Origin: Pseudomonadota bacterium
GTDB lineage: Bacteria; Pseudomonadota; Alphaproteobacteria; UBA1280; RI-95
DNA length: 64,000 nucleotides
Direction of reading: 5' to 3'
Assembly: GCA_016125375.1 (NCBI GenBank)
Contig: WGLU01000004.1
Location: 10,528 to 74,527 of the forward strand
Shown: positions 4,375-51,080 of the stretch, piece by piece
Layout: the number at the start of each line of letters is the position of its first letter
Numbering within the stretch: position 1 is the stretch's first letter
Translations under genes and position numbers: made by a program
The notes under the pieces: generated by a model
What the model was told of the DNA's origin: nothing
Database searches by the model: none
The model's input: only the letters and a program-made list of their open reading frames with translations

Positions 4375-6075
4375 TTAGCGGCGCGAAGCCAGCTCGGCCT
4401 TCAGGTGCGGGACAGCGGCGGTGACGGCCGACAGGACTTCCTGCTTCTGCAGTTCGTCCAGACCGTTCCACCAGTCCTTGTTGACGACGACGGTGGCGCC
4501 CATCTCGATGGTGTTCGGGTCGCCCCAGACGTGCTTCAGGTCGGCGTACTGCTCGTCGTCGGTCTCGGAGGCGGTGTAGACCCGCTTCTCGGTACCGTTG
4601 ATGACGATCTTCGCGTTGTCGAAGTCGCCGTCATCGAACGAGGACAGTTCCAGCTTGAAGCCGAGCGTCTTGGCCATCTTGGCCAGGTCGTTGACCGACT
4701 TGGCACCCGGTGCCACGACCGACAGCATGCACGACACTTCGCTGCGGCTCATGGCCAGCAGCGCGTCCTGCCCGCCCATCGGGACGGTGAGGATGCTCGC
4801 GTAGCTGTCGTCGAGCTTCACCATCTGGTTCCAGGTGTAGTTGGTACCGGAACCGGGCTTGTCGATGGCCAGCACGCCGCCGGAGCGACGCAGAGCCTGG
4901 ATCGAGCCGATGCCATCCTTGCAGAGCAGGTGGGCGTTCTCGGTCAGGACCTGAACCAGCGGCATCGCGTTGACGCCGATGGTGCTGCGCTCGCCGTAGA
5001 GCACGTCGTTCTGCGAGACGCCGATCTGGCACTCGCCGGAGTCGACGCCCGTCAGGATGCTCACCGAACCGGCCTTCGAGCCGAGCTCGAGCACCATGTC
5101 CGGCAACTGGTCCTTCAGGTGACGGCCGTAGGCGTAGTAGGCGCCGCCGGTCGAACCACCGCAGAACTTGCCGTAGACCCGGCCGCTGTTGACGGCCTGC
5201 TCGTACAGCGACGGCGCGCCGTTGGTGGCACCCGCGTTCGCGTCCTCGCCGGTCGAGATTTCCTCGCCCTCGGAGAGCTGCTGCAGGTAAGCCTCGTCGC
5301 CGGCCTGGACCTTGGAGACGTCATAGCCCTTCTGCTGCAGGTACTGGACGGCCTGCGCTTCGGAGATGTTGTTCTGCTGGGCGTAGACCACCCGCTCACG
5401 CGGAGACAGGAGCCAGTACCAGAAGAACGGGTTGTGGTAGATGTAGCCGTAGCCCGGGCTGTAGAAGCCCATGTACGGATAGCCGCCGATCATGTAGCGG
5501 TTCACCGACACGGTACCGTAGCCGCGGCTGACCGTACGGGTCGAGGTGCCGACCGCACGCGGGCGGTTGGTCCCGATGACCGTCTTGGCGCGGCTCTGGG
5601 CCGCACCCACGCGGGCCGTGGTCGGCTTCTGCGCGGTCGGACGGGTCGCGTTGGCACCGGCCGTCTTGCCCGGCTGCGCCTTGAAGGCACCCCCGGTGTT
5701 CGGCTTGTTGGCGCCGCCGTTCAGCGTCGTGTTCGGCTTGGTCGCACCGCCGAAGTTCGGCTTGTTGGCACCGGTGTTCGGCGTGGCCGGCTTGGCCGGA
5801 GTGGTCGGCTTGGGGGCCACGTACGGCTTGCTCGGCGCCGACGGCTTGCTCGGGCTCGACTTGAAGCCGCCGCCGAAGCTCTTGGAACTGCCACCGAAGC
5901 TCTTGGAACCGCCGCTGCCAAACTTGCCGACGAGCTCGATGTGCGCGTCGCCAGTCTGGATGGCCGTGGTGCTGAGCAGGTCGTGGGCGGTCAGGGTGAC
6001 GGCCGCCTCGGCCTGAGTGGAAAGGCACAGCGCCAGCGCGGCCGCTGCCCCAAGGAGAGAGATCTTCACGTTCAT
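4375..6075 (-). CDS. secreted protein: signal peptide, ~190-aa Gly/Ser/Pro/Lys/Asn low-complexity region, Tyr/Gly-rich patch, and a TAXI-like periplasmic binding domain
   Basis: MNVKISLLGAAAALALCLSTQAEA signal. C-terminal GGSTGGAYYAYG...AGSVSILTGVDSGECQIGVSQNDVLYG...KPGSGTNYT resembles TAXI-family TRAP solute receptors. Strongly C/G-ending codons. Confidence 0.8.
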   Translation of the reverse strand: MNVKISLLGAAAALALCLSTQAEAAVTLTAHDLLSTTAIQTGDAHIELVGKFGSGGSKSFGGSSKSFGGGFKSSPSKPSAPSKPYVAPKPTTPAKPATPNTGANKPNFGGATKPNTTLNGGANKPNTGGAFKAQPGKTAGANATRPTAQKPTTARVGAAQSRAKTVIGTNRPRAVGTSTRTVSRGYGTVSVNRYMIGGYPYMGFYSPGYGYIYHNPFFWYWLLSPRERVVYAQQNNISEAQAVQYLQQKGYDVSKVQAGDEAYLQQLSEGEEISTGEDANAGATNGAPSLYEQAVNSGRVYGKFCGGSTGGAYYAYGRHLKDQLPDMVLELGSKAGSVSILTGVDSGECQIGVSQNDVLYGERSTIGVNAMPLVQVLTENAHLLCKDGIGSIQALRRSGGVLAIDKPGSGTNYTWNQMVKLDDSYASILTVPMGGQDALLAMSRSEVSCMLSVVAPGAKSVNDLAKMAKTLGFKLELSSFDDGDFDNAKIVINGTEKRVYTASETDDEQYADLKHVWGDPNTIEMGATVVVNKDWWNGLDELQKQEVLSAVTAAVPHLKAELASRR

Positions 6076-26904: not shown

Positions 26905-26937
26905 TAAAACGGGGCACGTATGTGCCCCGTTTTTTTG
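26905..26937 (+). terminator. intrinsic terminator
   Basis: stem acggggcac/gtgccccgt, loop gtat, then ttttttt. Confidence 0.85.
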
Positions 26938-27026
26938 CTTATCCGCTTGGCCAGTGTGGGCTTTTTGGCCTATACTGCCGGACAGATATATCGGTCAAAA
27001 TAAAATCAACTTCCGGGAAGAGTAAA

Positions 27027-28733
27027 ATGCAACGTCACGACATTCTGATTATCGGTGCTGGTCTCGCAGGCATGCGTGCCGCGTTTGAAGGGATTACAGC
27101 AGGGCTGGATACTGCCGTCGTGACGAAGGTGCACCCGCTGCGTTCGCACTCCTGCGCGGCGCAGGGCGGCGTCAACGCTGCCATTAACCCTAAAGATAAC
27201 TGGGAAGATCACGCCTACGACACCGTTAAAGGTGCGGACTACATTGGCGATGAAGACTCCATCGACATTATGTGCCGCGAAGCGCCTCAGGCCGTGCTCG
27301 ACCTCGACGCTATGGGTTGCCCCTTCTCCCGCGAGGAAGACGGCACCATCGCCCAGCGTCCTTTTGGCGGCGCCAACTTCCCGCGCACTGCTTACGCTGC
27401 TGACCGTACCGGCCACGCCATGCTGCACACCCTATGGGAGCAGGCCGTTAAGCTGGGCACCACCATTTATCAGGAATACCACCTGCTCAAGGTGCTCAAG
27501 GATCCCGAAACCGGCCGCTGCGCTGGCGCTATGGTGATGGAAATCGCCACCGGTAAGGTCGAGACGATTGTTGCCAAAGCCGTGCTGATTGCCACTGGCG
27601 GTTATGGCCGTGTGTACGCCTCCAACACCAACGCCATGATTAACACCGGCGACGGTGTGGCGCTGGCCATGCGCGCTGGCGCCCATGCTGCCGATCTGGA
27701 GTTTGTGCAATTCCACCCGACTGGCCTCAAGAGCTCCGGCCTGCTGATTTCCGAGGGTGTGCGCGGTGAAGGTGCGTACCTGATTGGTAAGGACGGTCAG
27801 CGGTTTATGCAAAAATACGCGCCCAACAAGCTGGAACTGGCCAGCCGCGACGTGGTTTCCCGCGCCGAAACACTGGAAATCATGAACGGTAATGGCGTGG
27901 ACGGCGCTATCTTCCTCGACGTGCGTCACTTGGGGCGTGACCTGATTCTGGAACGTCTGCCGCAAATCCGCCAACTGGCGATTGATTTTGAGGGCGTTGA
28001 CCCCATTCACGAACCGATTCCTGTCCGTCCGACCTGCCACTACACCATGGGCGGCATCCGCACCAATACACTGGGTATGAGCGACAGTCTGCCCGGCCTG
28101 TTTGCCGCAGGCGAAGCTGCTTGCGTATCCGTACACGGGGCTAACCGTCTGGGTGCCAACTCCCTGCTCGAAACCATTGTGTTCGGCAAGGTAACCGGTA
28201 AGGAAATGGTGCGCTTTGTGAATAACGAAGGCAACAGAATGCCTAAAACATCCACAGACGAGGTGGCCGATGCCCAGCGCATGGTCGCCGACCTGAAAGC
28301 CCGCACCAAGCAAGGCGGTGTGCGCCCGGCCGACCTGCGTAAAAAGCTGACCGAGGGCATGCAGCATTTTGTGGGCGTGTTCCGGACTGAAGACCACCTG
28401 AAAGAAGGTCTGAAAGTCGTCCGCGAAGTCCGTAAAGACTTTGACCGCGTGTACATCGATGACAAATCCGACGCCTTTAACACCGACCTGCTGACTACGC
28501 TGGAGTTGCGAAACCTGATTGATATGGCCGAAGGCACCGTGTTGTGCGCGATTGAGCGGAAAGAATCCCGCGGCGCCCACGCCCGTGAGGATTTCCCCAC
28601 CCGTGACGACGCCAACTGGCGCAAGCACTCGCTTGCCGTGTGGAACCACAACCGCGGTGGCATAGAGGTTGATTACGAGGCTGTCCGTACCACAGGCAAC
28701 GCCCGTTACAAACCTGTAGAACGTAAGTACTAG
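27027..28733 (+). CDS. sdhA: succinate dehydrogenase/fumarate reductase flavoprotein subunit
   Basis: [30 protein letters not shown] (FAD-linking His), HPTG and HYTMGGI motifs; no Tat signal. Confidence 0.93.
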
Positions 28734-28747
28734 GCAGGAAGACGCGG

Positions 28748-29470
28748 GTGCTGCTGCCCCTGCACGACCTTAATCCCACCGCCCGTCCGGCGCTTGTGAC
28801 GGGCGGTATTATTGCGGCCTGCTTTGCTGTTTTTTTGTGGCAGTTGCAAGTGGGGCTGGATGTGTCGGTCATCGTTGGCGGTATGGTGCCGGATGTCCTG
28901 GCTGGAATGAACGGCTACGACCTGATGCGGATTCTGCCCGATGTCTGGGGCAAAGTTGACCCGTCAGAGAACTGGGGCTGGTTTACGGTCCTGAGCCACA
29001 TGTTCATGCATGGCGGCTGGATGCATATCATTTTTAATATGTATTTCCTGTGGCTGTTTGGGGACAATGTGGAAGACGCGCTGGGCCGCGGGCGTTATCT
29101 GCTTTTTTACCTGCTGTGCGGCCTGTCGGCGGCAATCATGTACGCCATCATCGATGGTGGTGCGGTGCCGATGGTAGGGGCCAGTGGTGCTATTTCCGGT
29201 GTGATGGGCGCCTATGTGGCGCGATTCCCCCATGCACAGGTGCGCACCCTGCTGCTGATGGGCATTTTTACGCGGATTATTCTGTTGCCCGCGTGGCTGC
29301 TGATTGCGTTCTGGTTCGGACGTGACGTCCTGAGCTGGTTGCTGATACAACAGGCTGGCGGTGGTGGAGGCGGTGTTGCACATATGGCCCACATCGGCGG
29401 ATTTGCCGCAGGATGGATTTTGATGAAGAGCAATGTTTTACAGTCCAGACACGCAGGCCCATGGGGTTGA
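28748..29470 (+). CDS. rhomboid-family intramembrane serine protease
   Basis: GTG start; HMFMHGGWMHIIFNM, GASGAISGVMGAY (catalytic Ser) and HIGGFAAG (catalytic His). Confidence 0.87.
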   Translation: MLLPLHDLNPTARPALVTGGIIAACFAVFLWQLQVGLDVSVIVGGMVPDVLAGMNGYDLMRILPDVWGKVDPSENWGWFTVLSHMFMHGGWMHIIFNMYFLWLFGDNVEDALGRGRYLLFYLLCGLSAAIMYAIIDGGAVPMVGASGAISGVMGAYVARFPHAQVRTLLLMGIFTRIILLPAWLLIAFWFGRDVLSWLLIQQAGGGGGGVAHMAHIGGFAAGWILMKSNVLQSRHAGPWG

Positions 29471-29560
29471 GCGTCTTGGATTTCTTGATGAAATAGGCTA
29501 GACTTTGATGTCCCTTCAAAGTTTGCACGGAACAAACGATAAAACAGGCGGATAGAACCG

Positions 29561-29833
29561 ATGGCGAAAACCGAGACCAAAAAAACGGCAGTTGCAGCAA
29601 AAACCAAGGCTGCTGCGCCTAAAAAAGCTGCTGCAAAGCCTGCAAAGGCTGCCGCCAAACCAGCTGTAAAAGCAGCTGCTAAAAAGCCCGCGGCAAAAGC
29701 ACCTGCCAAAGCTGCTGTAAAGACAGCCGCAAAAAAACCGGTTGCCAAAGCTGCCGCCAAACCGGCAACAACCAAAAAAGCACCTGCCAAAAAAGCGGCT
29801 GCGCCGAAGGCTGCCACTCCTGCCAAAAAGGGC
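29561..29833 (+). repeat. in-frame low-complexity Lys/Ala/Pro tract (histone H1/AlgP-like)
   Basis: Reiterated AAKP/AKKPA units encoded by gct/gca/gcc-aaa/aag repeats. Confidence 0.8.
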
Positions 29834-30847
29834 ATGGGCGAAACCCGCAGCGTAACCTTCCGTATCCGCCGCGGCGAGACTGTGGACGGTAATTACAAAT
29901 CGTGGATGGAAGAGTTCAAGGTGTCCTACGACGACAGCACCACCGTGCTGCAAGGTCTGGAGGCGATCAAGGGTGATCAGGATGGATCGCTGACCTTCCG
30001 CCGTTCCTGCCGTGCCTCCATTTGCGGTTCCTGCGGTATGTTCATCAACAACCGCTCGCGTCTGGCCTGTAAAACCAAGATTAAGGACATTGTCAACGGC
30101 ATGCCGGAGAAGAATGTTCCGCCTTCTGACGTGCTTGAAATCGCCCCGCAGAACAACCAGCCGGTGCTGAAGGATCTGGTCGTCGACATTACACCCTTCT
30201 ACAACAAGGTGGATGCCATCAAGCCTTACGTGCAAGAAGGCCAAGAAGCCGACAGGAACGTTAATAAAAGCTCGTTTGAGCAGGTCAACATGGTGTCCAA
30301 CTGCATCATGTGCGGTGCCTGCTACAGCGACTGTACGGCGATGGTCGAGAATCCCGACTATCTGGGGCCTGCCGCGTTGGCCAAAGCTTTCCGCTTTGTG
30401 TCCGACCCACGTGAAGGCCATAAGACCGAGCGCCTGAAGCAACTGTCAGAAAAGAACGGCGTGTGGGACTGCACGCGATGCGGCATGTGCATTGATGCCT
30501 GCCCGAAAGACGTTGCCCCGATGGAAGCCATCGTTAAACTGCGTACCCGCGCCATAAATGCCGGTGTGACCAGTAACCCGGGTGCCCGCCATGCAATGGC
30601 GTTTAAAAACGACATTCGTACCGGCGGCCTGCTGAACGAACCGTTGCTGCTCCTTAAGACCCTGCACTTCGGTGTGTTGGGCCAACTGGGCAACGCGCTG
30701 AATCTGGTGAAAAAAGGCAAGGTGCCGTCTCCGCTGCCGCACAAGGTCGAGCGCGTGGATGAAGTGGCTAAAATCTTTGCCGAGCTGGAAGCCAACCCCA
30801 TCAGCGTGGAAACCCGCAAAGAAGATACCGGCCCTGGGGCTGGTTAA
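29561..30847 (+). CDS. sdhB: succinate dehydrogenase/fumarate reductase iron-sulfur subunit with N-terminal Lys/Ala/Pro-rich extension
   Basis: Cluster motifs SCRASICGSCGM, CIMCGACYSDC and CTRCGMCIDACP. 91 in-frame Lys/Ala-rich codons precede an alternative ATG at 29834. Confidence 0.85.
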   Translation: MAKTETKKTAVAAKTKAAAPKKAAAKPAKAAAKPAVKAAAKKPAAKAPAKAAVKTAAKKPVAKAAAKPATTKKAPAKKAAAPKAATPAKKGMGETRSVTFRIRRGETVDGNYKSWMEEFKVSYDDSTTVLQGLEAIKGDQDGSLTFRRSCRASICGSCGMFINNRSRLACKTKIKDIVNGMPEKNVPPSDVLEIAPQNNQPVLKDLVVDITPFYNKVDAIKPYVQEGQEADRNVNKSSFEQVNMVSNCIMCGACYSDCTAMVENPDYLGPAALAKAFRFVSDPREGHKTERLKQLSEKNGVWDCTRCGMCIDACPKDVAPMEAIVKLRTRAINAGVTSNPGARHAMAFKNDIRTGGLLNEPLLLLKTLHFGVLGQLGNALNLVKKGKVPSPLPHKVERVDEVAKIFAELEANPISVETRKEDTGPGAG

Positions 30848-30895
30848 GGAGAGCAGGCTGTGTTCCGCAAACAACCTCCAAAGCAAGGTGGGAAT

Positions 30896-31219
30896 ATGAA
30901 GTTTCAGATCGTTCTGGTGGCCCTGATTGTCGGTGGTATTTTCCTCTTCCGCGATCAGATTAACGCCTATCTGGGGCTGGACAGCGGCCACCCCGTTACC
31001 ACAGCTGACGGCACGTTGCCTGAAAGCGGCCTGATTAAAAGCAACGGTACGGCGCTGTACAGCAGCCGTAACGGTAACTCTTTCGGTACGGCAAGTGCCG
31101 GTGACCGGGTGCACATTCTGGCAGGGGACAGTGCGTGGCTCCAAATCCACCACAACGGCCTGACCGCATGGGTGCGTGCAAACGATATCGACCTGTCGCA
31201 AAGCGACCAACAAAACTAA
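30896..31219 (+). CDS. small membrane-anchored protein with SH3b-like C-terminal domain
   Basis: AAGGTGGGA SD; one N-terminal TM (IVLVALIVGGIFLF); GDRVHILAGDSAWLQIHHNGLTAWV resembles bacterial SH3. Confidence 0.55.
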   Translation: MKFQIVLVALIVGGIFLFRDQINAYLGLDSGHPVTTADGTLPESGLIKSNGTALYSSRNGNSFGTASAGDRVHILAGDSAWLQIHHNGLTAWVRANDIDLSQSDQQN

Positions 31220-31245
31220 CAAGCCAGCCGAGAGGACACGAGACA

Positions 31246-32151
31246 ATGGGTATCAGTAAAGATTTGAACTACGCCTACTATCCGGGCTGTGCTGCCAAGC
31301 AGATTCAGAAAGAGGCCGACTGGTCCGCACGCGAAATTTCCAAACAACTGGGCGTCACCCTGCACGATATGCCGGCAGCCACCTGCTGCGGGGCTGGCAA
31401 CCTGCAGGAGCATGATCTGGCTGCGGCGCTGGCTGTGAATGCACGTATTTTCTCGCAAGCGGAAGAGATGGGCATGGATATTGTCACCATCTGCAACACC
31501 TGCCTGCAAACCTTTACCTTTGCCAACGAGCGCCTGAAAAAGGAGCCCGAGCTGCGCGAAAAAATCAATACTGTGCTTAAAAAAGCCGGTGTACGCCCGT
31601 ATGACGGCACAATCGACGTCAAGCACCTCGTCTGGGTGCTGGTTGATGATGTCGGTGTGGAAAAGGTCAAAAAGCAGATTAAAAATCCGCTGGGTGGCCT
31701 CAAGGTTGCGCCGTTCTACGGCTGCCATGCCCTGCGCCCGTCCGAGGTTTTCCACGGTCGTGGCGGTCAGGCGCCCAAGTATCTGGACACACTGATTGCC
31801 GCACTGGGCGGTGAAAGTGTGGACTACAAGGGTAAGGATAAATGCTGCGGCTTCCACTACATGCTGGTGAATGAGAAAGAGTTCCTGAGTATGTCTGGCC
31901 ACCACAGTCTCGAAGCCAAAACCCGTGGCGCCGAAGTGATGGTATCGCCGTGCACCTTGTGCGACATGTCGCTGGGTGCCTACCAGTCCCGCAGCGAGAA
32001 GCATCTGGGTGTTAAAATCAACCTGCCGGAAATGAACATCAGCCAGCTGGTGGGGGTTGCCTTTGGCCTGGACAAGAAAACACTGGGCCTGAACCGGTTG
32101 CACCAGGATGTGCAGCCGGCCCTGCGCGCCCGCAATATCAAAGTGGCCTGA
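31246..32151 (+). CDS. HdrB-like double CCG-domain subunit of a non-classical (type E) succinate dehydrogenase
   Basis: Two C...CCG...CxxC units: YPGC..TCCGAGN..ICNTC and FYGC..KCCGFHY..PCTLC. Confidence 0.85.
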   Translation: MGISKDLNYAYYPGCAAKQIQKEADWSAREISKQLGVTLHDMPAATCCGAGNLQEHDLAAALAVNARIFSQAEEMGMDIVTICNTCLQTFTFANERLKKEPELREKINTVLKKAGVRPYDGTIDVKHLVWVLVDDVGVEKVKKQIKNPLGGLKVAPFYGCHALRPSEVFHGRGGQAPKYLDTLIAALGGESVDYKGKDKCCGFHYMLVNEKEFLSMSGHHSLEAKTRGAEVMVSPCTLCDMSLGAYQSRSEKHLGVKINLPEMNISQLVGVAFGLDKKTLGLNRLHQDVQPALRARNIKVA

Positions 32152-32204: not shown

Positions 32205-32597
32205 TCATCGATTGAGGGTCAGACCGAAGTACAGGTGTTCCGCCACCATACCAACCAGTTTGCAGGTCAGAAACAGGAGCGCGACACTCACTACTGCCGG
32301 TACTGTCTCGATAATCGGCATATCTGTCAGCCAGCCGACCAACAGAACAGCTACGACACCGAGGCCGCCGAACATCATCAGGCCGCAGACGACCACACAG
32401 GCCAGAACCTTCAGGGCGCCGCTGCGGCTGATAGCCCACAGTTTGCGGACCTTGTTCGGGCTCAGGGTGAGCGGGATGAAGACCAAAAATGTCACGGCAC
32501 CGATGATCATGGCCGTGATGTTCTGAGCCGGGTTGGGGCCGATGAACATGATGAATACATTGATCATGTAAATGAGCAGGATGATGGGAGGTAGCAT
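32205..32597 (-). CDS. hypothetical 4-TM membrane protein (130 aa)
   Basis: Four hydrophobic segments; own terminator nearly identical to that of the next gene. Confidence 0.6.
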   Translation of the reverse strand: MLPPIILLIYMINVFIMFIGPNPAQNITAMIIGAVTFLVFIPLTLSPNKVRKLWAISRSGALKVLACVVVCGLMMFGGLGVVAVLLVGWLTDMPIIETVPAVVSVALLFLTCKLVGMVAEHLYFGLTLNR

Positions 32598-32708
32598 GCA
32601 GGTTTCTCGGGGTTGAGAGGGAGCCAGAGGGGTGAAAGTCGGTAAACGGAAAAACTGTCAACTGGCAACAAATATGGGGATGGGAAGGGAATCATCCAAG
32701 CCGGAGGC

Positions 32709-32737
32709 AAAAAAACGCCCGTCATCCGACGGGCGTT
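32709..32737 (-). terminator. intrinsic terminator of the 32750..33157 gene
   Basis: Same stem aacgcccgtc/gacgggcgtt as at 32172-32195, loop atcc; 26 of 28 nt identical. Confidence 0.8.
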
Positions 32738-32749
32738 CGTTATTTTTGC

Positions 32750-33157
32750 TTAGCGCCACAGCCACTGCGGGCGTTTGCGCAGCAGGTACAGCGCAAGAAG
32801 GCGGAAGAGCCCGCCGCTAACAGCCATGGCCACAACGAACAGGCCCATCTGGCCAAGTTCCGCTGCTGGTACCTGATTGGAAGGCGCGAGATACATCACA
32901 ACCGCGGTGATGACGGCAACCGTGGACAGGATGATGTTGGCCATCAGGCACATCAGGGTGCACTGGATGGTCGTCGCCTTGCTGGCGGCCCAACCGGCTT
33001 TGATGGTGTCCTTCGGCAGGCCCAGATAGGTCGCAAAACCCATCAGGCCCAGCAACACGGCAGTAAGGGCAATGTTGACCGCCTCGCTGGTGATGTGGAA
33101 GAACATCGACGCGAAGGTAAAGGCCGTAACGCCCAAAAGGGCAAGCAGGAAGCGCAT
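32750..33157 (-). CDS. hypothetical 4-TM membrane protein (135 aa)
   Basis: AGGAG SD; four hydrophobic segments. The loop LPKDTIKAGWAASK weakly parallels SPNKVRKLWAISR of the neighbouring gene. Confidence 0.65.
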   Translation of the reverse strand: MRFLLALLGVTAFTFASMFFHITSEAVNIALTAVLLGLMGFATYLGLPKDTIKAGWAASKATTIQCTLMCLMANIILSTVAVITAVVMYLAPSNQVPAAELGQMGLFVVAMAVSGGLFRLLALYLLRKRPQWLWR

Positions 33158-33300
33158 GGTTGACTCCTGTGGTGAGGGAGGAATGCGTGTAAATAAAACT
33201 GAAAAAGCAAGACCCTGAGGGGTTGATGAATATCTTCAGACCAGATTTGTATACGATATTTGAGCCGCAGGCAACAAAAACGCCCGCGCTGAAAGGGGGC

Positions 33301-33642
33301 TTAACTCCGCGTGTTCAGGGATTCTGTACGGATGCCGAAGCGTTTTTTTAATTCATTTTCGACCAGGTAGCGTTCTTTCGCGTCCAGAAAACGCAGGGCG
33401 TCTGAACCCAGAATCAGGACCTTCTCCGCCCCTTTGGGGGCGCGTTCAAAGGCCAGTGAGATAGCCCAGGCAATATGAAGACGGCGTTCGTTTTCCTGCT
33501 CGGTAGGCGGCAGGGTTTGCAGGTTGCCGATCATGGCCTGCAAATCATCATCGGTTGCGAAAGTACCCTGCACAGGCAGGAGAGCGTGCTCTGTCCGGCT
33601 GAGATTGACGATGAACGGGGGCTGTTTTTGTGTACTTGTCAT
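33301..33642 (-). CDS. hypothetical protein (113 aa)
   Basis: ORF with backbone-like codon usage. I prefer the ATG at 33642, because 33681 would place the upstream terminator hairpin directly against the start. Confidence 0.5.
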   Translation of the reverse strand: MTSTQKQPPFIVNLSRTEHALLPVQGTFATDDDLQAMIGNLQTLPPTEQENERRLHIAWAISLAFERAPKGAEKVLILGSDALRFLDAKERYLVENELKKRFGIRTESLNTRS

Positions 33643-33681
33643 GCCCTGTACGGTAGCCGGATTGCGCGAATGCCTCAACAA

Positions 33682-33724
33682 AAAATCAGAAAGCCGAGGG
33701 GGTTGTGCACCATCCCTCGGCTTT
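33682..33724 (-). terminator. intrinsic terminator of the 33737..34249 gene
   Basis: stem aaagccgaggg/ccctcggcttt with T-run on the - strand. Confidence 0.7.
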
Positions 33725-33736
33725 CATCGACTACTA

Positions 33737-34249
33737 CTACTTTCGGTATCCATTACCGGATCCCTTCATCTTGTTGCGGATTTCCTGATCGCGCTGGCTG
33801 CGGTCGCGCTTGCGGGCGGCGGCACGGGCCTTGCTGTCAGGGGCGGTCTTGTTGCCCAGCGGGCTCTTGGCCGGCTCGGCACGGCGGCGCTCGGTGCGCT
33901 GCGGACGCTCAGCCTTGGGCGGCATCACGTCGGCGGGCAGGGGGCGCGCGGGGTCGGCGTTCAGGCTGACGAGCCGGAACGGCCAGTTGGCAGCGCGGCT
34001 GGCGCGGAAGGCCGTCTCACCCGCCGAGGTTCCGAAGAACACGGGCAGGATGACGCGGTCGATGCGCACACCGAGGACCTTCAGTTGCTCGGCGACCTGA
34101 CGCAGGTACTCCGCGCAGGTGGCCTTCATGGCATCCTTGGCGGCGTCCAGCGCGGCGGTCACGGCAACGTCGAGAGGCGCAATGCCGGTGGCCTTGCGCA
34201 GGTCGGCGATCGCTTCGCCATTGCGGGAGGTGTAGAGAAAGTGGGTCAT
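33737..34249 (-). CDS. hypothetical protein with highly basic disordered C-terminus (170 aa)
   Basis: AAGGAG SD; C/G-ending codons; tail PKAERPQRTERRRAEPAKS...ARAAARKRDRSQRDQEIRNKMKGSGNGYRK. Confidence 0.65.
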   Translation of the reverse strand: MTHFLYTSRNGEAIADLRKATGIAPLDVAVTAALDAAKDAMKATCAEYLRQVAEQLKVLGVRIDRVILPVFFGTSAGETAFRASRAANWPFRLVSLNADPARPLPADVMPPKAERPQRTERRRAEPAKSPLGNKTAPDSKARAAARKRDRSQRDQEIRNKMKGSGNGYRK

Positions 34250-35919: not shown

Positions 35920-36951
<1,032 letters not shown>

Positions 36952-36956
36952 GACCG

Positions 36957-38132
36957 ATGAATATCCACGAGTATCAAGCCAAAGAAATCTTCCGTAAGTA
37001 CGGCGTTGCCGTGCCGCGCGGGATTGTTGCCAAAACCGCAGACGAAGCTGTGAAAGCAGCCAAGGAACTGGGTGGCAAGGTCTGGGTTGTCAAAGCACAG
37101 GCGCACACAGGTGGCCGCGGTAAGGCTGGCGGTGTTTTCGTCTGCAAGACCGAGGCAGAAGTTAAAACCGCTGCCGAAAAAATCATCGGCATGACGCTGG
37201 TCACAAAACAGACCGGCCCATCCGGTCTGCCGGTTCACAGCGTGCTGGTAGAAGAGGGCAGCAACATTGCCCGCGAGCTGTACCTCGGTATTATTCTGGA
37301 CCGTGCGACCAGCCAGCTGGTCATGATGGCTTCCACCGAAGGCGGTATGGAAATCGAAGAGGTTGCCGAGCATACCCCTGAGAAAATCCTGAAAGAGCAA
37401 ATCAACCCTGTTGTTGGTCTGATGCCGTTCCAAGCCCGCAATCTGGCCTTTAAACTGGGTCTGGAAGGTGATCAGGTTGGTAAGGCCGTCAAGTTCATGA
37501 TGGCGCTGTACCAAGTGTATGTGGATACCGACGTGTCGATTATTGAAATCAACCCGCTGGTTGTGACCAAAGAGAACGAAGTGCTGGCACTGGATGCCAA
37601 AATCAACTTCGACGGTAACGCCCTGTTCCGCCATAAAGACATTGCAGCGATGCAGGACGAAAGCCAGGAAGACGCGAAAGAAGTAGAGGCTCACAAATAC
37701 AACCTCAACTACATCGCGCTCGACGGTAATATCGCCTGCATGGTGAACGGTGCGGGCCTTGCCATGGCAACCATGGACATCATCAAGCACTTCGGTGGCG
37801 AGCCGGCCAACTTCCTGGACGTTGGCGGTGGCGCAACCGAGGAAACCGTAACCGCTGCCTTCCGTATTCTGCTCTCCGACGAGCAAGTTAAAGGCATTCT
37901 GGTCAACATCTTCGGTGGCATTATGAAGTGCGACGTGATTGCCCGCGGTATTGTTGCCGCTGCCAAGAACGTAGAGCTGAACGTGCCGCTGGTGGTGCGT
38001 CTGGAAGGCACCAACGTGGACGCGGGCAAGAAGATTCTTGCCGAGTCCGGCCTGCCTATTACCCCGGCTGACGGCCTTGCCGATGCCGCCAAGAAAATCG
38101 TCGGCGCCGTGCGTCAGCAAAGCGCAGCGTAA
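36957..38132 (+). CDS. sucC: succinyl-CoA ligase beta subunit
   Basis: [17 protein letters not shown] start; ATP-grasp fold. Confidence 0.97.
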
Positions 38133-38144
38133 GGAGAAAGAACA

Positions 38145-39020
38145 ATGGCGATTTTTGTCGATAAAAATACCAAGGTTATCTGTCAGGGCTTTACCGGCTC
38201 TAACGGTACTTTCCACTCCGAGCAAGCACTGGCTTACGGCACCCAGATGGTTGGTGGCGTGACCCCGGGCAAAGGTGGGACCAAACACCTGGGCCTGCCT
38301 GTGTTCAACACCGTGGAAGAGGCTGTGGAAGCAACAGGTGCCAACGCGACCATGATTTTCGTACCACCGCCGTTTGCGGCTGATGCGATTATCGAAGCCG
38401 CTGCTGCCGGTATTGGCCTGTGCGTGTGCATTACCGAGGGGATTCCTATCCTCGACATGATCAAGGTGAAAAAATACATCACCGAGACCAAATGCAACAT
38501 GCGCCTTATCGGCCCCAACTGCCCGGGCGTTATTACACCGGGTGAGTGCAAAATCGGTATTATGCCGGGTCACATCCACAAGCCGGGTAAAGTGGGCATC
38601 GTGTCCCGCTCCGGTACACTGACGTACGAAGCTGTAGCGCAGACGACCGAAGTGGGTCTGGGCCAGAGCACTTGCGTCGGTATCGGTGGCGACCCTGTCA
38701 ACGGTACCAACTTTATTCAGGTCCTGAGCGCTTTTGAAGCCGATCCGCAGACCGAAGCTATCGTCATGATTGGCGAAATCGGTGGTACGGCGGAAGAAGA
38801 AGCAGCCGACTACATCAAAAAGTCCGTGACCAAGCCAGTGGTTGCCTTCATTGCGGGTCAAACCGCGCCTAAGGGCAAGCGTATGGGCCACGCCGGTGCG
38901 ATTATCTCCGGCGGTCAGGGAACAGCTGAGAGCAAAATCAAGGCGTTGACAGATGCCGGTGCCCACGTTGTGGCAACTCCGACAGAGCTGGGCAAGGCCG
39001 TTGCCAAGTTCTTCAGCTAA
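38145..39020 (+). CDS. sucD: succinyl-CoA ligase alpha subunit
   Basis: [23 protein letters not shown] and [10 protein letters not shown] (phospho-His) motifs. Confidence 0.97.
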
Positions 39021-39038
39021 GCGCCTGTTGATTGAATG

Positions 39039-39067
39039 AACGCCGGTTCTTGCCGGCGTTCTTTTTG
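39039..39067 (+). terminator. intrinsic terminator after sucD
   Basis: stem aacgccgg/ccggcgtt followed by cttttt. Confidence 0.75.
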
Positions 39068-39154
39068 GGTGTAGGTCAGGCACCTTTGTGCCGACTGCCA
39101 TAATTAGGTGCTAAGAAAAATAATACTGCCCTTGTGTCATAAAACTGACATAAA

Positions 39155-39445
39155 ATGGCCAAGGGTAAGCGTCAGGGAGGACGTGTCATTAGCAGACGTT
39201 TCGAGGTCCGTATCTATAATGCCCGCGTACGCGAGCTGCTGGAGCACGGGGAAACAAATAATACAGGGTTGAGTGACCGCTGGGCCGATGCGGTGTATGA
39301 AAGTATTATGGCGGCTTCGCCGCAGGAAGCTGTAAAGCTGATGCGTCAAAAGTTCCCGCCTGCACAGGGATTTGTGGTCACTAACGTGCTTCTTGTGACC
39401 GAGACGGGTGTGCAGGAAATCAGAAAACACGAATACGAGAGTTAG
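39155..39445 (+). CDS. hypothetical small basic protein (96 aa)
   Basis: ORF only; AT-richer than its surroundings; no recognisable motif; weak SD. Confidence 0.45.
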   Translation: MAKGKRQGGRVISRRFEVRIYNARVRELLEHGETNNTGLSDRWADAVYESIMAASPQEAVKLMRQKFPPAQGFVVTNVLLVTETGVQEIRKHEYES

Positions 39446-39626
39446 TTTTTTTACCCCCCGTCAGTTGTCTGTCAGCTGACACCTTTGTGCCCCCCTCCAT
39501 ACGGAAGCAGATGTTCTGATGGGAAATGCAAATCCCCATCGGGGACCACCTGCAATCTTTTCCTATCTCACATCTCCTCCGGCGCGAAAGCGCTCCTTTT
39601 CTGTTCTAGCTGAGGGAAGCTAAATC

Positions 39627-39788
39627 ATGATGACCATCGAAAACTCCGCCGACTTCGTCGCTCTGTCGGGCTCCGGCTCCATTCGCTGCCACAGCGGCAG
39701 CGGTTCGATCAAGTGCAGCGGTTCCGGCTCCGGCTCCATCAACTGGGGTGGCTCCGGTTCCTCCCCCCTCTACGGCAGCGGTTCGTAA
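39627..39788 (+). CDS. 53-aa Gly/Ser-repeat peptide MMTIENSADFVALSGSGSIRCHSGSGSIKCSGSGSGSINWGGSGSSPLYGSGS
   Basis: Not in the ORF track (<60 aa). GAGGGAAG SD 7 nt upstream; + strand-specific terminator 39 nt downstream; pyrimidine-rich leader and C/G-ending codons like the other inserts. Confidence 0.6.
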   Translation: MMTIENSADFVALSGSGSIRCHSGSGSIKCSGSGSGSINWGGSGSSPLYGSGS

Positions 39789-39826
39789 CCACAACACACC
39801 CGACCGCTCCACAAGCGAGAATCGAG

Positions 39827-39860
39827 ACCCCGGTGCTTAGGCACCGGGGTTTTGTTATTT
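39827..39860 (+). terminator. intrinsic terminator of the peptide gene
   Basis: 10-bp stem accccggtgc/gcaccggggt, loop ttag. The T-run is on the + strand only, so it does not serve convergent truA. Confidence 0.8.
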
Positions 39861-40634
39861 TCAGCAGGTTTCAAAAACCGTGAACAGGTTTTCCGGATAA
39901 TCAACATCCATAAAATACAGACCGCAAGGGGGCATGGTGCGGCCGCCGTCGGTGCGTTGTTTGCTTGCCAGCAGCGCCTTCATGGTGCCTGCGGGCATGG
40001 CGCCGCGGCCAATATCCACCAGCGTGCCGACGATGATGCGCACCATGTTGTGGAGGAATGCCACGCCCTTGATGTCGATGGTGATGAGCTCACCCTCCTG
40101 CACGATGTTCAGGTGCAGGATTTCGGTAACCGGGCTTTTTGCCTGACACTCGTTGGAGCGGAACGCGCTAAAATCGTGCCGGCCTACCAGTACGGCGGCC
40201 TCTTTACGCATCAGGTCAATATCCAGCGGGTATTTGATGTGGGCGGCGCGGTTGTCCTCCAGCGCCGCATGGGCGCGGCGGTTGAGGATTTTGTAATTGT
40301 AGCGGCGCGCCGTCGCGGCAAAGCGGGCCTGGAACTTCTCGTCCACGTGCGCCACTTCCCGTACGGCAATGTGGGGGCGCAGCAGGCAGTTCAGGCCGTC
40401 TTTTATATTGATGAGTTGCAGGCGGTCGTTGTGCAAGTCCACATGGCAGACCATGCCGCGGGCATGAACACCTGCGTCCGTGCGCCCCGCCATCTCGAAG
40501 GATGTAATCTCTTCATTGGCCAGCGTTTTCAGCGCGCGTTCGATTTCGCCCTGCACGGTGGGCAAGCCGTCCTGCTTTTGCAGACCGTGGAAGGGGGTAC
40601 CGTCAAACTCCAGCAGGAGCTTAAAACGCCTCAT
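39861..40634 (-). CDS. truA: tRNA pseudouridine38-40 synthase
   Basis: MRRFKLLLEFDGTPFHGLQKQ...AGRTDAGVHA catalytic Asp motif. Confidence 0.95.
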   Translation of the reverse strand: MRRFKLLLEFDGTPFHGLQKQDGLPTVQGEIERALKTLANEEITSFEMAGRTDAGVHARGMVCHVDLHNDRLQLINIKDGLNCLLRPHIAVREVAHVDEKFQARFAATARRYNYKILNRRAHAALEDNRAAHIKYPLDIDLMRKEAAVLVGRHDFSAFRSNECQAKSPVTEILHLNIVQEGELITIDIKGVAFLHNMVRIIVGTLVDIGRGAMPAGTMKALLASKQRTDGGRTMPPCGLYFMDVDYPENLFTVFETC

Positions 40635-41551
40635 GCAAAAACGTCCCCGACGTTTATCCCGCCGCCGCGTAGGAGCTCGCTGTCGCTCATGGGCTTTTTG
40701 CCCTCGCGCTGGAGCTGTGTCAGGCGCACGGCATCTTCGCCACAGGCCACAATCAGGCCGCCTTTTGGGTCAACCGACAGCACCGTGCCGGGCTTGCCGT
40801 TACCCTCGGCCAGTTTGGCGTCCAGCAGTTTGTACAGCACGCCGTCCAGCTTTGTGGTTGCACCGGGGAAGGGGCACATGCCCAGAATATGCTGGCGCAC
40901 CTCATGGGCGGTTTTGCCAAAGTCGGTCACCTTCATCTCCGGCGTCAGCTTGTGAGCATAGGTGAGATTTTCCTCATGCTGGGGTGCAGCGCGCTCGCGG
41001 TAATTCGGCCAGTTTTTAAGCACCTGCATCAAGGCGCTGGCGCCGAGGGTGGCCAGGTCGTCGTGCAGTTTTCCTGTGGTTGTGCCGTCTTTGATTTTTA
41101 CCGGCAGGCGCAGATACACGGGCCCGCTGTCGAGGCCCTTCTCCATATGCATGATGCACACTTCTGTCGTGGTGTCGCCAGCCAGAATCGTATGATGAAG
41201 GGGAGCTGCGCCACGCCAGCGAGGCAGGGCGCTGGGGTGCACATTCAGGCAAGGGGCAACGTCCAGCACGCTCTGCGGTAGCAACAGGCCGTAGGCGGCC
41301 ACGCAAATCATATCCGGGTGCAAGGCTTGCAACTGCTCCAGTCCCTCGCCTTTGAAGCGCGCGGGGGTAAACACGGGAATGCCGTGTTTTTCGGCGACTT
41401 CATGCACAGGTGTTTTACGCACCTGCATGCCCCGTCCGGCAGGGCGCGGCGGTTGGGTGAATACGCCTACAACCTTGTGCTGGTCGCTGGCGATAAGCTT
41501 TTGCAGGCTGGGGACCGCAAACTCCGGCGCACCCATAAAGACAACGTGCAT
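40631..41551 (-). CDS. fmt: methionyl-tRNA formyltransferase
   Basis: MHVVFMGAPEFAVPSL...NVHPSALPRWRGAAP motif; overlaps the truA start. Confidence 0.95.
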   Translation of the reverse strand: MHVVFMGAPEFAVPSLQKLIASDQHKVVGVFTQPPRPAGRGMQVRKTPVHEVAEKHGIPVFTPARFKGEGLEQLQALHPDMICVAAYGLLLPQSVLDVAPCLNVHPSALPRWRGAAPLHHTILAGDTTTEVCIMHMEKGLDSGPVYLRLPVKIKDGTTTGKLHDDLATLGASALMQVLKNWPNYRERAAPQHEENLTYAHKLTPEMKVTDFGKTAHEVRQHILGMCPFPGATTKLDGVLYKLLDAKLAEGNGKPGTVLSVDPKGGLIVACGEDAVRLTQLQREGKKPMSDSELLRGGGINVGDVFA

Positions 41552-49043: not shown

Positions 49044-49202
49044 TTTTCACGTTGTCTGGTTGATTGTACACAGCATAAAGGGCCGCAGTATAGCGCATAT
49101 AAAGACGTTTTGGGGTGCTTTTTTTAGCTATGCCTTGCAATCGGTTTATGCGTGTATGATACTGGTCAGGTTGAAAAAATATACAGAAATCAGCAAAGGT
49201 AC

Positions 49203-51080
49203 ATGGTCGAAAACCTCCAGATTCTTGTTCTTGGATTCCTGACCGTCTTTTTGTACATGGCGGCCGGGCGACTTGTGTTTACCCATATCGGCCAGCATAA
49301 ATGGGCCACTCCCTTCAATACACTGCTCACCGGGGCCGGTATCTGGTACCTGTGGTTCCTGATGCTGCATGGTTTGCTGGGCGCAAGCATGAAGCTGGTC
49401 TGGTGGCTGTTTGCCGTGTCTGTTGTCGGGTTGTTGCTGGTCATGACCAAAGCCCACCAGATGCACGACCGCACAATGAAGTTCTTCTGGCCCGTGATTA
49501 TGGTTGTACTGGTGGTTACGCTGCCGGCTTTCTGGTATCTGACCGGTGACAGCCCCATGCTCTGGGGTGAGCTGACCCACTATGTTAAAAATGCCGACCA
49601 TATTTTCCGGCTTGATGGCCTGCCCACAGCAGCCGATGCCGCCCAGTTTGCTATCTACCTGCCGCCGGTCCCCATGGGGCTGGCGATTGTCGTTTTGCCG
49701 GTCAGCATCATCATGGGCAAGTTTGTCCCTGCCGCTTTTGCCATGTTCGGTCTTGCGCTGGTTGCTGCGGCATCCGGCCACATGGTTCGGATTTCGGGCG
49801 TACAGGTTGGCTGGCACAACGTGGTGCTGAGCACCGTCTTTGCGTTGTTCGCGCTGACGGTCATGAATCCCTTCTTCAAGGAAATGATTATCTTCTCCGG
49901 CTATCCGGATATGCTGATTGCCGCGCTGCTGTTTGCGGTTTGCGCCCCGCTGATGCGCAGCGAGCATCTGCCCCGCGGGCTGGAGGTTGTGCCCACCGCC
50001 TTCGGGCTGGCCCTGCTGGTCGGCACGAGCGAAATTGGTCAGGCCCTGACCATTTTCCTGCTTGGGTACTGGTTGCTCCGCAGCATGCTGGAAAGTCCTG
50101 TTCCTGCGATTAAAGACATACTGGGCTGGTCCATATTGGCCATGCTGCCGATGGTGGCGTGGTTCATCTGGCGTAACTATTTGCTCGCGAATGGTGTGCC
50201 GCTTACCGATCCCCTTAAGTTCCAGACGGCGAACTTTGTCGATGTGATTCTGGCCTATGGCGAAACGCTGAGCGCCAACCCTGCTGCCGCATTTCTGATT
50301 GTTATTGTACTGGCAATGGGCTTGCGCAGGCTGCTGTCGGTCAGTTCTTTCGGGGGTATCAAGCGCTTCCTTATCAGCGAAAGCCCGCTCACCTTCCCAA
50401 TGGTGATGTTGATTGTCTACGTGTTTGGTTTTGGCGTGATGGCGCTCAGCCGTTACGGCTCCGGTGACCAGCAGCTGTATGAACAGCCATGGATGTTCCT
50501 TTTCCACATGCAGTATCTGGTCATTCTGCCGATTTGGCTGTGGCTGAATCACTGGTATCTGGGCACCACAGAGCTGCGTGCGTGGGTTGCTAAAACACCT
50601 GGCACACTGGCGCTGGTTATGTGTCTGGTCTTTATGGGGCTGGTGATTGCCAGCAAAAACCGCATCGTTGTGCCGGTTTCCCTCCAGCTTGACCATACAT
50701 TCCGCGTGGCCAACACCATGATGCTCAACAAGCAGATTGGCTGGGGGAACAAGGTTGCCGTGCTGGACAGTTTCGAGTCCAACGGCTACTACGCCGCCGC
50801 TTTGGGTTACGGCCTGCGCCATTACAGTCCGGTGAACTCGGTCATCAAGGAATTTGCGCGCTCAGGCGGTGATTTTATTACATTCCACCGCGCCCTGCTC
50901 AAGGGTGGGTATGAATATCTGTGGGTGCATACCTCTACACCGGATATCATCGCCATGATGGGGGATGACCTTCAGCCGGAGAACTCTTACCTGTTTGAAA
51001 TCACCAACACAGGTCTGACGTTCCGCAACGCCTACCCGCACCCGGGGTATGTTAGCACCCCGTGGCGCCTGCGCTATTAG
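49203..51080 (+). CDS. large polytopic membrane protein, possibly a GT-C-type glycosyltransferase or polymerase
   Basis: At least 12 hydrophobic segments followed by a ~130-aa soluble C-terminus. Start uncertain (GTG 49152 or ATG 49203). Confidence 0.65.
   Translation: MVENLQILVLGFLTVFLYMAAGRLVFTHIGQHKWATPFNTLLTGAGIWYLWFLMLHGLLGASMKLVWWLFAVSVVGLLLVMTKAHQMHDRTMKFFWPVIMVVLVVTLPAFWYLTGDSPMLWGELTHYVKNADHIFRLDGLPTAADAAQFAIYLPPVPMGLAIVVLPVSIIMGKFVPAAFAMFGLALVAAASGHMVRISGVQVGWHNVVLSTVFALFALTVMNPFFKEMIIFSGYPDMLIAALLFAVCAPLMRSEHLPRGLEVVPTAFGLALLVGTSEIGQALTIFLLGYWLLRSMLESPVPAIKDILGWSILAMLPMVAWFIWRNYLLANGVPLTDPLKFQTANFVDVILAYGETLSANPAAAFLIVIVLAMGLRRLLSVSSFGGIKRFLISESPLTFPMVMLIVYVFGFGVMALSRYGSGDQQLYEQPWMFLFHMQYLVILPIWLWLNHWYLGTTELRAWVAKTPGTLALVMCLVFMGLVIASKNRIVVPVSLQLDHTFRVANTMMLNKQIGWGNKVAVLDSFESNGYYAAALGYGLRHYSPVNSVIKEFARSGGDFITFHRALLKGGYEYLWVHTSTPDIIAMMGDDLQPENSYLFEITNTGLTFRNAYPHPGYVSTPWRLRY

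Follow-up and report, generated by a model that had tools for sequence, protein, structure and literature searches.

Does a short open reading frame (ORF) composed largely of glycine and serine repeats, located between sucD and truA of an alphaproteobacterium, encode a real protein, and if so, of what kind? The question is raised by a locus within 64,000 nucleotides of contig WGLU01000004.1 (assembly GCA_016125375.1), a stretch that is referred to here in its entirety as the window. The ORF has 53 codons and runs on the plus strand from an ATG at 39627, with a second ATG at 39630, to a TAA at 39786-39788. Its translation, MMTIENSADFVALSGSGSIRCHSGSGSIKCSGSGSGSINWGGSGSSPLYGSGS, is called the GS peptide. 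ORF, second ATG and translation are exactly as given in an earlier interpretation made without database searches (the sequence-only reading), which considered the ORF to be a real gene with the layout of a precursor of a ribosomally synthesised and post-translationally modified peptide (RiPP) and noted a resemblance to siderophore-microcins. The analysis reported here indicates that the ORF is, with high probability, a genuine protein-coding gene, and that a RiPP or microcin role for the peptide is unsupported. Judging from comparison of sequences, the GS peptide represents a new, narrowly distributed and unannotated small-protein family whose regulatory cassette is conserved unusually well.

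A search of the peptide against 5.8 billion proteins returned no match. Exact look-ups established that the collection itself lacks the peptides of 49-53 residues, and the empty search is uninformative because both the GS peptide and its homologues are absent from the proteins searched. The 49-53-residue peptides are recorded in a gene-position index and are missing from clustered protein collections, which makes the family invisible to protein-level homology search. The family was not found in Pfam, NCBIfam, PHROGs, PADLOC or the sequences of the PDB, and a scan of viral contigs with a profile of the peptide gave no match. The organism is sparsely represented: TruA and the 96-residue protein encoded upstream of the peptide are singletons in clustering at 90% identity, and the closest TruA among the GTDB species representatives is 47% identical. 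TruA-based scans of genomes and metagenomes identified one close contig, L005 (79% identity), in which no peptide gene adjoins truA. The interpretation of this contig as a loss of synteny was overturned by longer contigs, which in that lineage place an ion-channel gene between the peptide gene and truA.

The window sequence is designated lineage A, and statements about conservation cover lineages A-D or A-C, as named. Lineages B and C were located by synteny, through contigs that carry cluster mates of SucD. The gene order of lineage B (L012, L013, L014) is sucD, a gene of 88 codons, a gene of 49 codons, the ion-channel gene and truA; lineage C (L008) has the same order with the addition of a hybrid histidine kinase gene after sucD. 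The 49-residue peptides have the sequences MNTIDNQFCRSGSGSAPLRYSGSGSIHLSGSGSIHWGGSGSMPFSGSGS in lineage B and MTNLESTPYLRSGSAPVRCFGGSGSIKFGGSGSIHFGGSGSAPLLSSGS in lineage C. Lineage D (L021/L019) was found with a profile of the upstream 75-96-residue protein that was compared with 1.84 billion representatives and detected 184 relatives, of which P0010 led to the locus. It is much more distant, with a TruA 53% identical to that of the window, and its 36-residue peptide, MERNLFSLGGSGSISGSGSIYVSGSGSSPMRSGSGS, is encoded 177 nucleotides after a homologous 79-residue gene. A 52-residue ORF located 5' of the ion-channel gene of lineage D was rejected as a homologue of the GS peptide, as it is not rich in glycine and serine. 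The homologous peptides of the three other lineages, with 49, 49 and 36 residues, are always encoded about 180 nucleotides 3' of the same 75-96-residue gene. An independent assembly of the organism of the window (Logan SRR10063242) originates from the metagenome of a geothermal spring in New Zealand at 27 °C (PMC7692377). The gene caller applied to this assembly predicts the same 53-residue gene, and this call, together with the homologous ORFs that the three further lineages have at the syntenic position, bears out the earlier claim that the gene is real. The window holds one copy of the GS peptide, and there is none elsewhere in the other fetched loci. Five loci with a more distant member of the upstream gene family (L015, L016, L022, L023 and L024) contain neither a GS peptide nor the palindrome described below.

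The start and stop codons of the ORF are conserved in all lineages. Including the stop codon, the ORFs are 162, 150, 150 and 111 nucleotides long, and the differences are multiples of three. Insertions and deletions comprise whole codons: the window contains a two-codon SG insertion, one module is missing in lineage D, and the number of repeats varies. In the gap-free repeat blocks, the amino acid identity is 0.68-0.73 in frame +0, compared with 0.35-0.65 in the other five frames. Serine codons switch between the TCN and AGY families in three columns of the alignment, and columns 25 and 35 are positioned in the well-aligned repeat region. In these two columns AGC is exchanged for TCC or TCG, and the serine persists despite two or three nucleotide changes. 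Under a codon-usage log-odds model whose training set was the genes of the window, the ORF scores +12.1 (0.23 per codon, typical of window genes), whereas an antisense ORF of 68 residues scores -18.5. The sequence-only reading had asked which of these two frames is conserved, and the answer is the plus frame, with length changes in multiples of three nucleotides and varying repeat number.

All four peptides share one grammar. A non-repeat N-terminus of 8-13 residues is followed by three to five [G/S]GSGS pentapeptides, and the chain ends with SGS. The pentapeptides are separated by one to five hydrophobic or basic residues with the pattern I-(K/H/R/N)-(C/L/F/W/V), and in the first and last modules the separator has the form x-P-(L/V/F/M)-x. 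The columns that are invariant in the four lineages are M1, GSGSI, GSGSI, GSGS, one proline and the C-terminal SGS, with the last GSGS and the proline in the arrangement GSGS-x-P. Each serine of the repeats is preceded by a glycine. The repeats and the C-terminus are conserved, whereas the 8-13 N-terminal residues form the least conserved segment. The Cys/Cys/Trp/Tyr punctuation of the repeats described previously is present in the window sequence, but it is not a feature of the family: cysteine, tryptophan, tyrosine and histidine occupy no conserved column of the four-lineage alignment, and the peptide of lineage D contains no cysteine, tryptophan or histidine. The peptides have molecular masses of 3.4-5.1 kDa, glycine contents of 22-25%, serine contents of 24-36%, grand averages of hydropathy (GRAVY) from -0.33 to 0.0 and isoelectric points of 6.5-9.3. 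No signal peptide or hydrophobic segment was seen in them upon inspection by eye. In an AlphaFold2 model of the peptide calculated without an alignment (predicted local distance difference test score, pLDDT, of 54), the predicted beta-strands fall on the I-x-hydrophobic modules.

The gene and the elements around it form a compact cassette of about 390 bp that is complete in itself (Table 1). The palindrome located 5' of the gene extends to the 16-bp sequence CCTGTCAGCTGACAGG in lineages B, C and D. It occurs as one exact copy in the window and is missing from the loci that have the upstream gene but not the GS peptide. The four-fold degenerate sites of sucC, sucD, truA and the 88-residue gene are only 29-59% identical among lineages A, B and C, which is near saturation, yet the palindrome is unchanged in the four lineages. 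It is proposed to be an operator that would bind a dimeric transcription factor. No bacterial operator emerged when the literature was searched for the palindrome. A CATA core is positioned at a fixed distance 3' of the palindrome in the four lineages (CATACG in the window, CATATA in L012, CATAAT in L008 and CATAGT in L021/L019), and the putative operator would overlap the -35 element of a dedicated promoter. Sigma-32, sigma-54, EcfG-type and Pho-box interpretations of the upstream region, considered by eye, were rejected, since the spacing varies or lineage D does not have the upstream half-site. It is possible that the peptide gene is co-transcribed with the 96-residue gene.

Table 1. Coordinates of the GS-peptide cassette and of the gene preceding it in the window; A-D are the lineages defined in the text.
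Feature	Position	Strand	Description
Gene for upstream 96-residue protein	39155..39445	+	Precedes the GS peptide in all four lineages; syntenic partner, functional link not implied
Palindrome TGTCAGCTGACA	39470..39481		Invariant in A-D; proposed operator overlapping the proposed -35 hexamer
Candidate promoter	39475..39503	+	-35-like GCTGAC/CTGACA at 39475-39481, 16-nucleotide spacer, -10-like CCATAC/CATACG at 39497-39503
Long imperfect 5' leader hairpin	39509..39575	+	Closed by AGAUGU/ACAUCU; inner CCCC-AUC-GGGG hairpin
Short GC hairpin with GNRA loop (GGCGC-GAAA-GCGCT) and pyrimidine/U-rich tract	39581..39607	+	Terminator-like according to scan
Shine-Dalgarno sequence GAGGGAAG	39612..39619	+	7 nucleotides 5' of the ATG
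Coding sequence of the 53-residue Gly/Ser-repeat peptide	39627..39788	+	Syntenic homologues, frame-specific conservation, Ser codon switches, insertions and deletions of 3n nucleotides, codon usage
C/A-rich 3' untranslated spacer	39789..39822	+	59-76% identical among A, B and C
Intrinsic terminator: 14-pair stem, TTAG loop, T-run	39823..39861	+	Found by terminator scan; abuts the stop codon of convergent truA

The structured leader of about 117 nucleotides is 71-78% identical among lineages A, B and C at the nucleotide level; the corresponding values are 70-75% for the proposed promoter region and 65-69% for the coding sequence. In each of the four lineages, the fold of minimum free energy contains the long 5' hairpin closed by AGAUG(U)/(A)CAUCU (z-scores of -2.2 to -3.6). 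The lineage D version keeps the closing helix and has a different interior. The GCGC-GAAA-GCGC hairpin that the sequence-only reading had described in a pyrimidine-rich leader is indeed present, at 39581-39594. Its stem is invariant in lineages A, B and C, and lineage D has a hairpin and a C/U tract at this position. The short hairpin and the U-rich tract may together serve as a translation enhancer or a weak attenuator. In other bacterial mRNAs, 5'-terminal hairpins stabilise the transcript and U-rich tracts enhance translation. The Shine-Dalgarno sequence, also recognised correctly from the sequence, occupies the loop and the 3' arm of a 4-bp AGCU/AGCU hairpin at 39608-39621. It is invariant in lineages A, B and C, where it is placed 7-9 nucleotides before the ATG, and is replaced by AAGGTG in lineage D.

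The stem of the terminator is formed by nucleotides 39823-39854, with the core CCCCGGTGC/GCACCGGGG at 39828-39849. The T-run at 39850-39861 is found on the plus strand only, in agreement with the previous description of a one-directional terminator. In the comparison of lineages A, B and C, 95% of the cells are paired, and in four pairs both partners have changed in a compensatory manner. The place of the terminator is taken in lineage D by an unrelated GC hairpin with a T-run. The whole transcript folds better than its shuffled versions (z = -3.99). Rfam 15 contains no family for the leader and returned only sub-threshold, terminator-like matches with E = 0.2-1; one tRNA is the only match in the window at the Rfam gathering thresholds.

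The favoured interpretation, which as a complete statement has about an even chance of being correct, is that the GS peptide is a genuine, lineage-restricted and separately regulated microprotein that acts unmodified, by self-association or by binding a partner. Activity without modification is favoured in view of what is conserved, namely the Gly/Ser turns, isoleucine, proline and the SGS end. A dimeric transcription factor attached to the palindrome over the -35 region would gate transcription, and the 5'-terminal hairpin, pyrimidine tract and strong Shine-Dalgarno sequence would result in a stable, well-translated monocistronic mRNA. The peptide would work in the cytoplasm without cross-linking of cysteine, tryptophan or tyrosine. 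Its flexible GSGS turns may space short amphipathic beta-strand "stickers", in which isoleucine and an aromatic or aliphatic residue would face one side and lysine, histidine, arginine or asparagine the other. The peptide may thereby constitute an amphipathic beta-meander or a "sticker-spacer" chain; it would associate with itself or bind a partner and have no enzyme-like activity. Its biological role may be that of a stress peptide, a regulator or a structural peptide. As a fallback, the sequence-only reading named an orphan precursor or a product of another type, for instance a disordered peptide, and this agrees better with the evidence than its RiPP and microcin suggestions.

Several observations weigh against the interpretation as a regulated, unmodified microprotein. 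The peptide appears in only four lineages, whose genomes were searched as far as the available flanks. A simple sigma-70 consensus scan calls no promoter, and an independent promoter is proposed only tentatively because the -10 element of the window is poor by this consensus. The leader is conserved more than the ORF, so that the function could lie mainly in the RNA. The low confidence of the AlphaFold2 model makes the idea of a beta-meander weak. The Nei-Gojobori dN/dS ratios of 0.64-1.0 alone give no sign of strong purifying selection. They are inflated by the switches between serine codon families and by the fast-changing spacer residues, and the case for selection therefore rests on the pattern of changes and not on a low ratio.

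The ORF could be spurious and represent either a GGCTCC-type microsatellite without coding function or intergenic DNA that is GC-rich and open by chance, but this explanation is highly improbable and has already been largely refuted. It would be consistent with the several frames that the GC content leaves open across the region, with a short 6-nucleotide array detected by Tandem Repeats Finder at 39719-39737, and with dN/dS values that are not low. However, this array is the only one reported and contains just 3.2 copies of the 6-mer, and the repeat is imperfect in DNA and regular in the protein. Furthermore, the ORF with its start, stop and Shine-Dalgarno sequence has been kept in lineages whose TruA is as little as 53% identical, and both the conservation and the codon usage are specific to its frame. 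It is more difficult to dismiss the RNA as the main product, although this is also unlikely. The transcript could be a regulatory leader or a dual-function small RNA, or the ORF could be a regulatory upstream ORF that senses the supply of glycine and serine. The higher identity of the leader than of the coding sequence, the folding of the transcript relative to shuffled versions, the short hairpin with a U-tract inside the leader, and the ion-channel gene downstream in lineages B and C all fit an RNA function. Nevertheless, the substitutions track the protein frame: serine codons change family, and identity is highest in frame +0. In each lineage the ORF is also followed by a strong, covarying terminator. 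The window has no plus-strand gene downstream that could be regulated, as truA is convergent. A candidate antiterminator pairing between CUGGGGU at 39744-39750 and ACCCCGG at 39827-39833, identified by eye, is not conserved in lineage C, and no Rfam family was found at E<=1 beyond terminator-like noise. The specific possibility of an attenuator leader peptide is not supported, since in the window the terminator is followed by convergent truA, the terminator covaries and inspection revealed no conserved antiterminator.

It is similarly unlikely that the GS peptide is an orphan precursor of a RiPP or of a secreted peptide with its maturase and exporter genes elsewhere in the genome. In such a precursor, oxazol(in)es could form from Gly-Ser dipeptides, as they do in microcin B17, or the C-terminal serine could be decorated, as in siderophore-microcins. 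Serine that follows glycine is the context in which microcin B17 synthetase forms oxazoles, and all serines of the repeats follow glycine. Serine and glycine are invariant and modifiable in principle, the gene appears tightly regulated, and the genome was inspected over 64 kb only. In contrast, the residues suitable for cross-linking are variable, and the short N-terminal segment, which would have to serve as the leader, shows the least conservation, the opposite of what is typical of RiPP leaders. None of the four peptides matches a precursor family of NCBIfam or Pfam. A soluble alpha/beta fold, and not that of a membrane immunity protein, is predicted for the upstream 96-residue protein. The absence of an adjacent maturase, exporter or immunity gene, noted in the sequence-only reading, holds for the entire 64-kb window and for the available flanks of lineages B, C and D. 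The Pfam scan covered 50 predicted genes of the window and eight identified previously; it detected no YcaO, lanthionine synthetase, SPASM enzyme, C39-peptidase ATP-binding cassette (ABC) exporter or IroB/MceC-like glycosyltransferase in the window, where the only radical-SAM protein is RlmN. The RiPP-precursor layout is therefore not upheld, having neither conserved cross-linkable residues nor a conserved leader, a precursor-family match or linked genes.

Comparison with characterised systems reveals partial similarities. Class IIb microcins (MccE492, MccM and MccH47) resemble the GS peptide in being ribosomal and chromosomal and in having a Gly/Ser-rich C-terminus that ends with SGS-COOH. 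The hallmark of the class is a serine-rich C-terminus whose last serine carries a siderophore moiety (PMC6795089). These microcins are 5-10 kDa peptides of Enterobacteriaceae, whose gene clusters also provide immunity, modification and export (PMC6795089), whereas complete GS peptides have 3.4-5.1 kDa. Within the 64-kb window, the GS peptide has no linked immunity, MceC/D/I/J-type or ABC exporter genes, and it is devoid of a hydrophobic toxic domain. The double-glycine leader, a defining motif of these microcins, was not seen in it either. What remains of the proposed likeness to siderophore-microcins is the invariant C-terminal SGS; the size and the linked genes do not agree. The microcin B17 precursor McbA and other linear azol(in)e peptides share the Gly-Ser-rich core with each serine after a glycine, but the window contains no McbBCD-type or YcaO genes, and the GS peptide has no long conserved leader and no conserved cysteine.

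Structural repeats and stress proteins provide further comparisons. The beta-helix repeats of Pfam DUF2807 (GIN domain) carry GSG-x-I, which is similar to GSGSI of the GS peptide. However, the gathering score is 24.2 bits, and the matches fall far short of it, at 12.0 bits (E = 0.17) and 11.6 bits (E = 0.24). Furthermore, a repeat period of about eight residues is too short for a coil of this beta-helix, and the peptides are only 36-53 residues long in total. In the RTX nonapeptide beta-roll (GGxGxDxUx), glycine-rich turns alternate with a three-residue strand that bears a hydrophobic residue. The GGSGSIHF segment of the GS peptide resembles this combination of a turn and a short strand in its sequence pattern, but it differs from RTX in the period of eight instead of nine, in having no aspartate for Ca2+ and only three to five repeats, and in the absence of a secretion signal and of type I secretion genes. 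Hydrophilins are defined by a glycine content above 6% and a hydrophilicity index above 1. The GS peptide was rejected as a hydrophilin or LEA-like (late embryogenesis abundant) stress peptide, because its glycine content of 22-25% is accompanied by a GRAVY of just -0.33 to 0.0.

The neighbours of the peptide gene in the window are sucD, the 96-residue ORF and convergent truA, as listed previously. A terminator at 39038-39061 follows sucD. The 717-residue ORF at 36948-39101 on the minus strand is a shadow ORF over sucC and sucD and not a gene, and the 367-residue ORF at 39852-40955 on the plus strand is a shadow of truA. The upstream protein of 75-96 residues is the sole constant neighbour of the GS peptide. 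It belongs to an unannotated family of proteins of about 65-110 residues, which numbers 184 representatives (E<=1e-3); the majority of the members that were examined are not accompanied by the peptide. Genes of this family are mostly located after sucD or after a PAS-HisKA-REC hybrid kinase. The AlphaFold2 model of the 96-residue protein has a pLDDT of 89.7 and displays a confident alpha/beta fold, predicted to be soluble. The protein has no significant fold match in the PDB and no match in Pfam or NCBIfam.

The flanks of lineages B, C and D contain sucCD, the kinase, the ion channel, M15 peptidases and truA. A gene for an Ion_trans protein, a voltage-gated-like channel, is positioned between the GS peptide and truA in these three lineages (4595-5552 in L012 and 7842-8797 in L008). 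The gene has been lost in the organism of the window, and the terminator of the peptide gene therefore now abuts truA. In lineage D, two paralogous and divergent Peptidase_M15_4 genes, 39% identical, flank the pair of the 79-residue gene and the GS peptide (L021 431-949 on the minus strand and 1678-2196 on the plus strand). The ion channel, hybrid kinase and M15 peptidases are not present in the window, and none of them is therefore an obligate partner of the peptide.

The remainder of the window encodes core housekeeping functions, including metK, trmB, rimP-nusA-infB-rbfA-truB-rpsO-pnp, rlmN, ETF-QO, asd, sdhA/B, mdh-sucCD, truA-fmt-def, etfBA and hbd. An unusual succinate dehydrogenase region at 26922-32151 on the plus strand comprises sdhA, a rhomboid protease gene, the gene for a 428-residue SdhB-like Fe-S protein with an N-terminal extension and that for a CCG-domain protein, and resembles non-classical (CCG-type) succinate:quinone oxidoreductases. 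Four predicted genes in a row, encoding 126-170 residues, are located at 32205-34249 on the minus strand; they have good codon-usage scores and no Pfam match. Another low-complexity stretch rich in glycine and serine, GSGGSKSFGGSSKSFGGGFK, is encoded at approximately 5919-5931 on the minus strand, in the 566-residue ORF 4375-6075, and is unrelated to the GS peptide. The protein encoded by this ORF has a weak NMT1_3 domain. Predicted proteins of 642 residues (49152-51080, plus strand) and 472 residues (2903-4321, plus strand) belong to no Pfam family, and the latter has a weak match to a twin-arginine translocation (TAT) signal.

There is a slim chance that the locus specifies a tightly regulated peptide of a new kind, either a Ser/Gly natural-product precursor with unlinked enzymes or a self-assembling microprotein, and that its leader is a new cis-regulatory RNA. 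If the peptide were a natural-product precursor, it would define a new RiPP class characterised by [G/S]GSGS-I repeats and an SGS C-terminus. A self-assembling microprotein could form a "sticker-and-spacer" beta-sheet fibril or condensate once a dedicated repressor is released. The RiPP-like appearance of one sequence, with a "leader plus repetitive core with Cys/Trp/Tyr", was not borne out by the relatives, which tempers over-interpretation. The family also exposes a blind spot: sequence searches report "no homologues" although synteny reveals them, as such peptides are missing from the large protein collections. With its simple repeat grammar and its delimited cassette of putative operator, leader and terminator, the GS peptide is a tractable case for the study of low-complexity bacterial small proteins.

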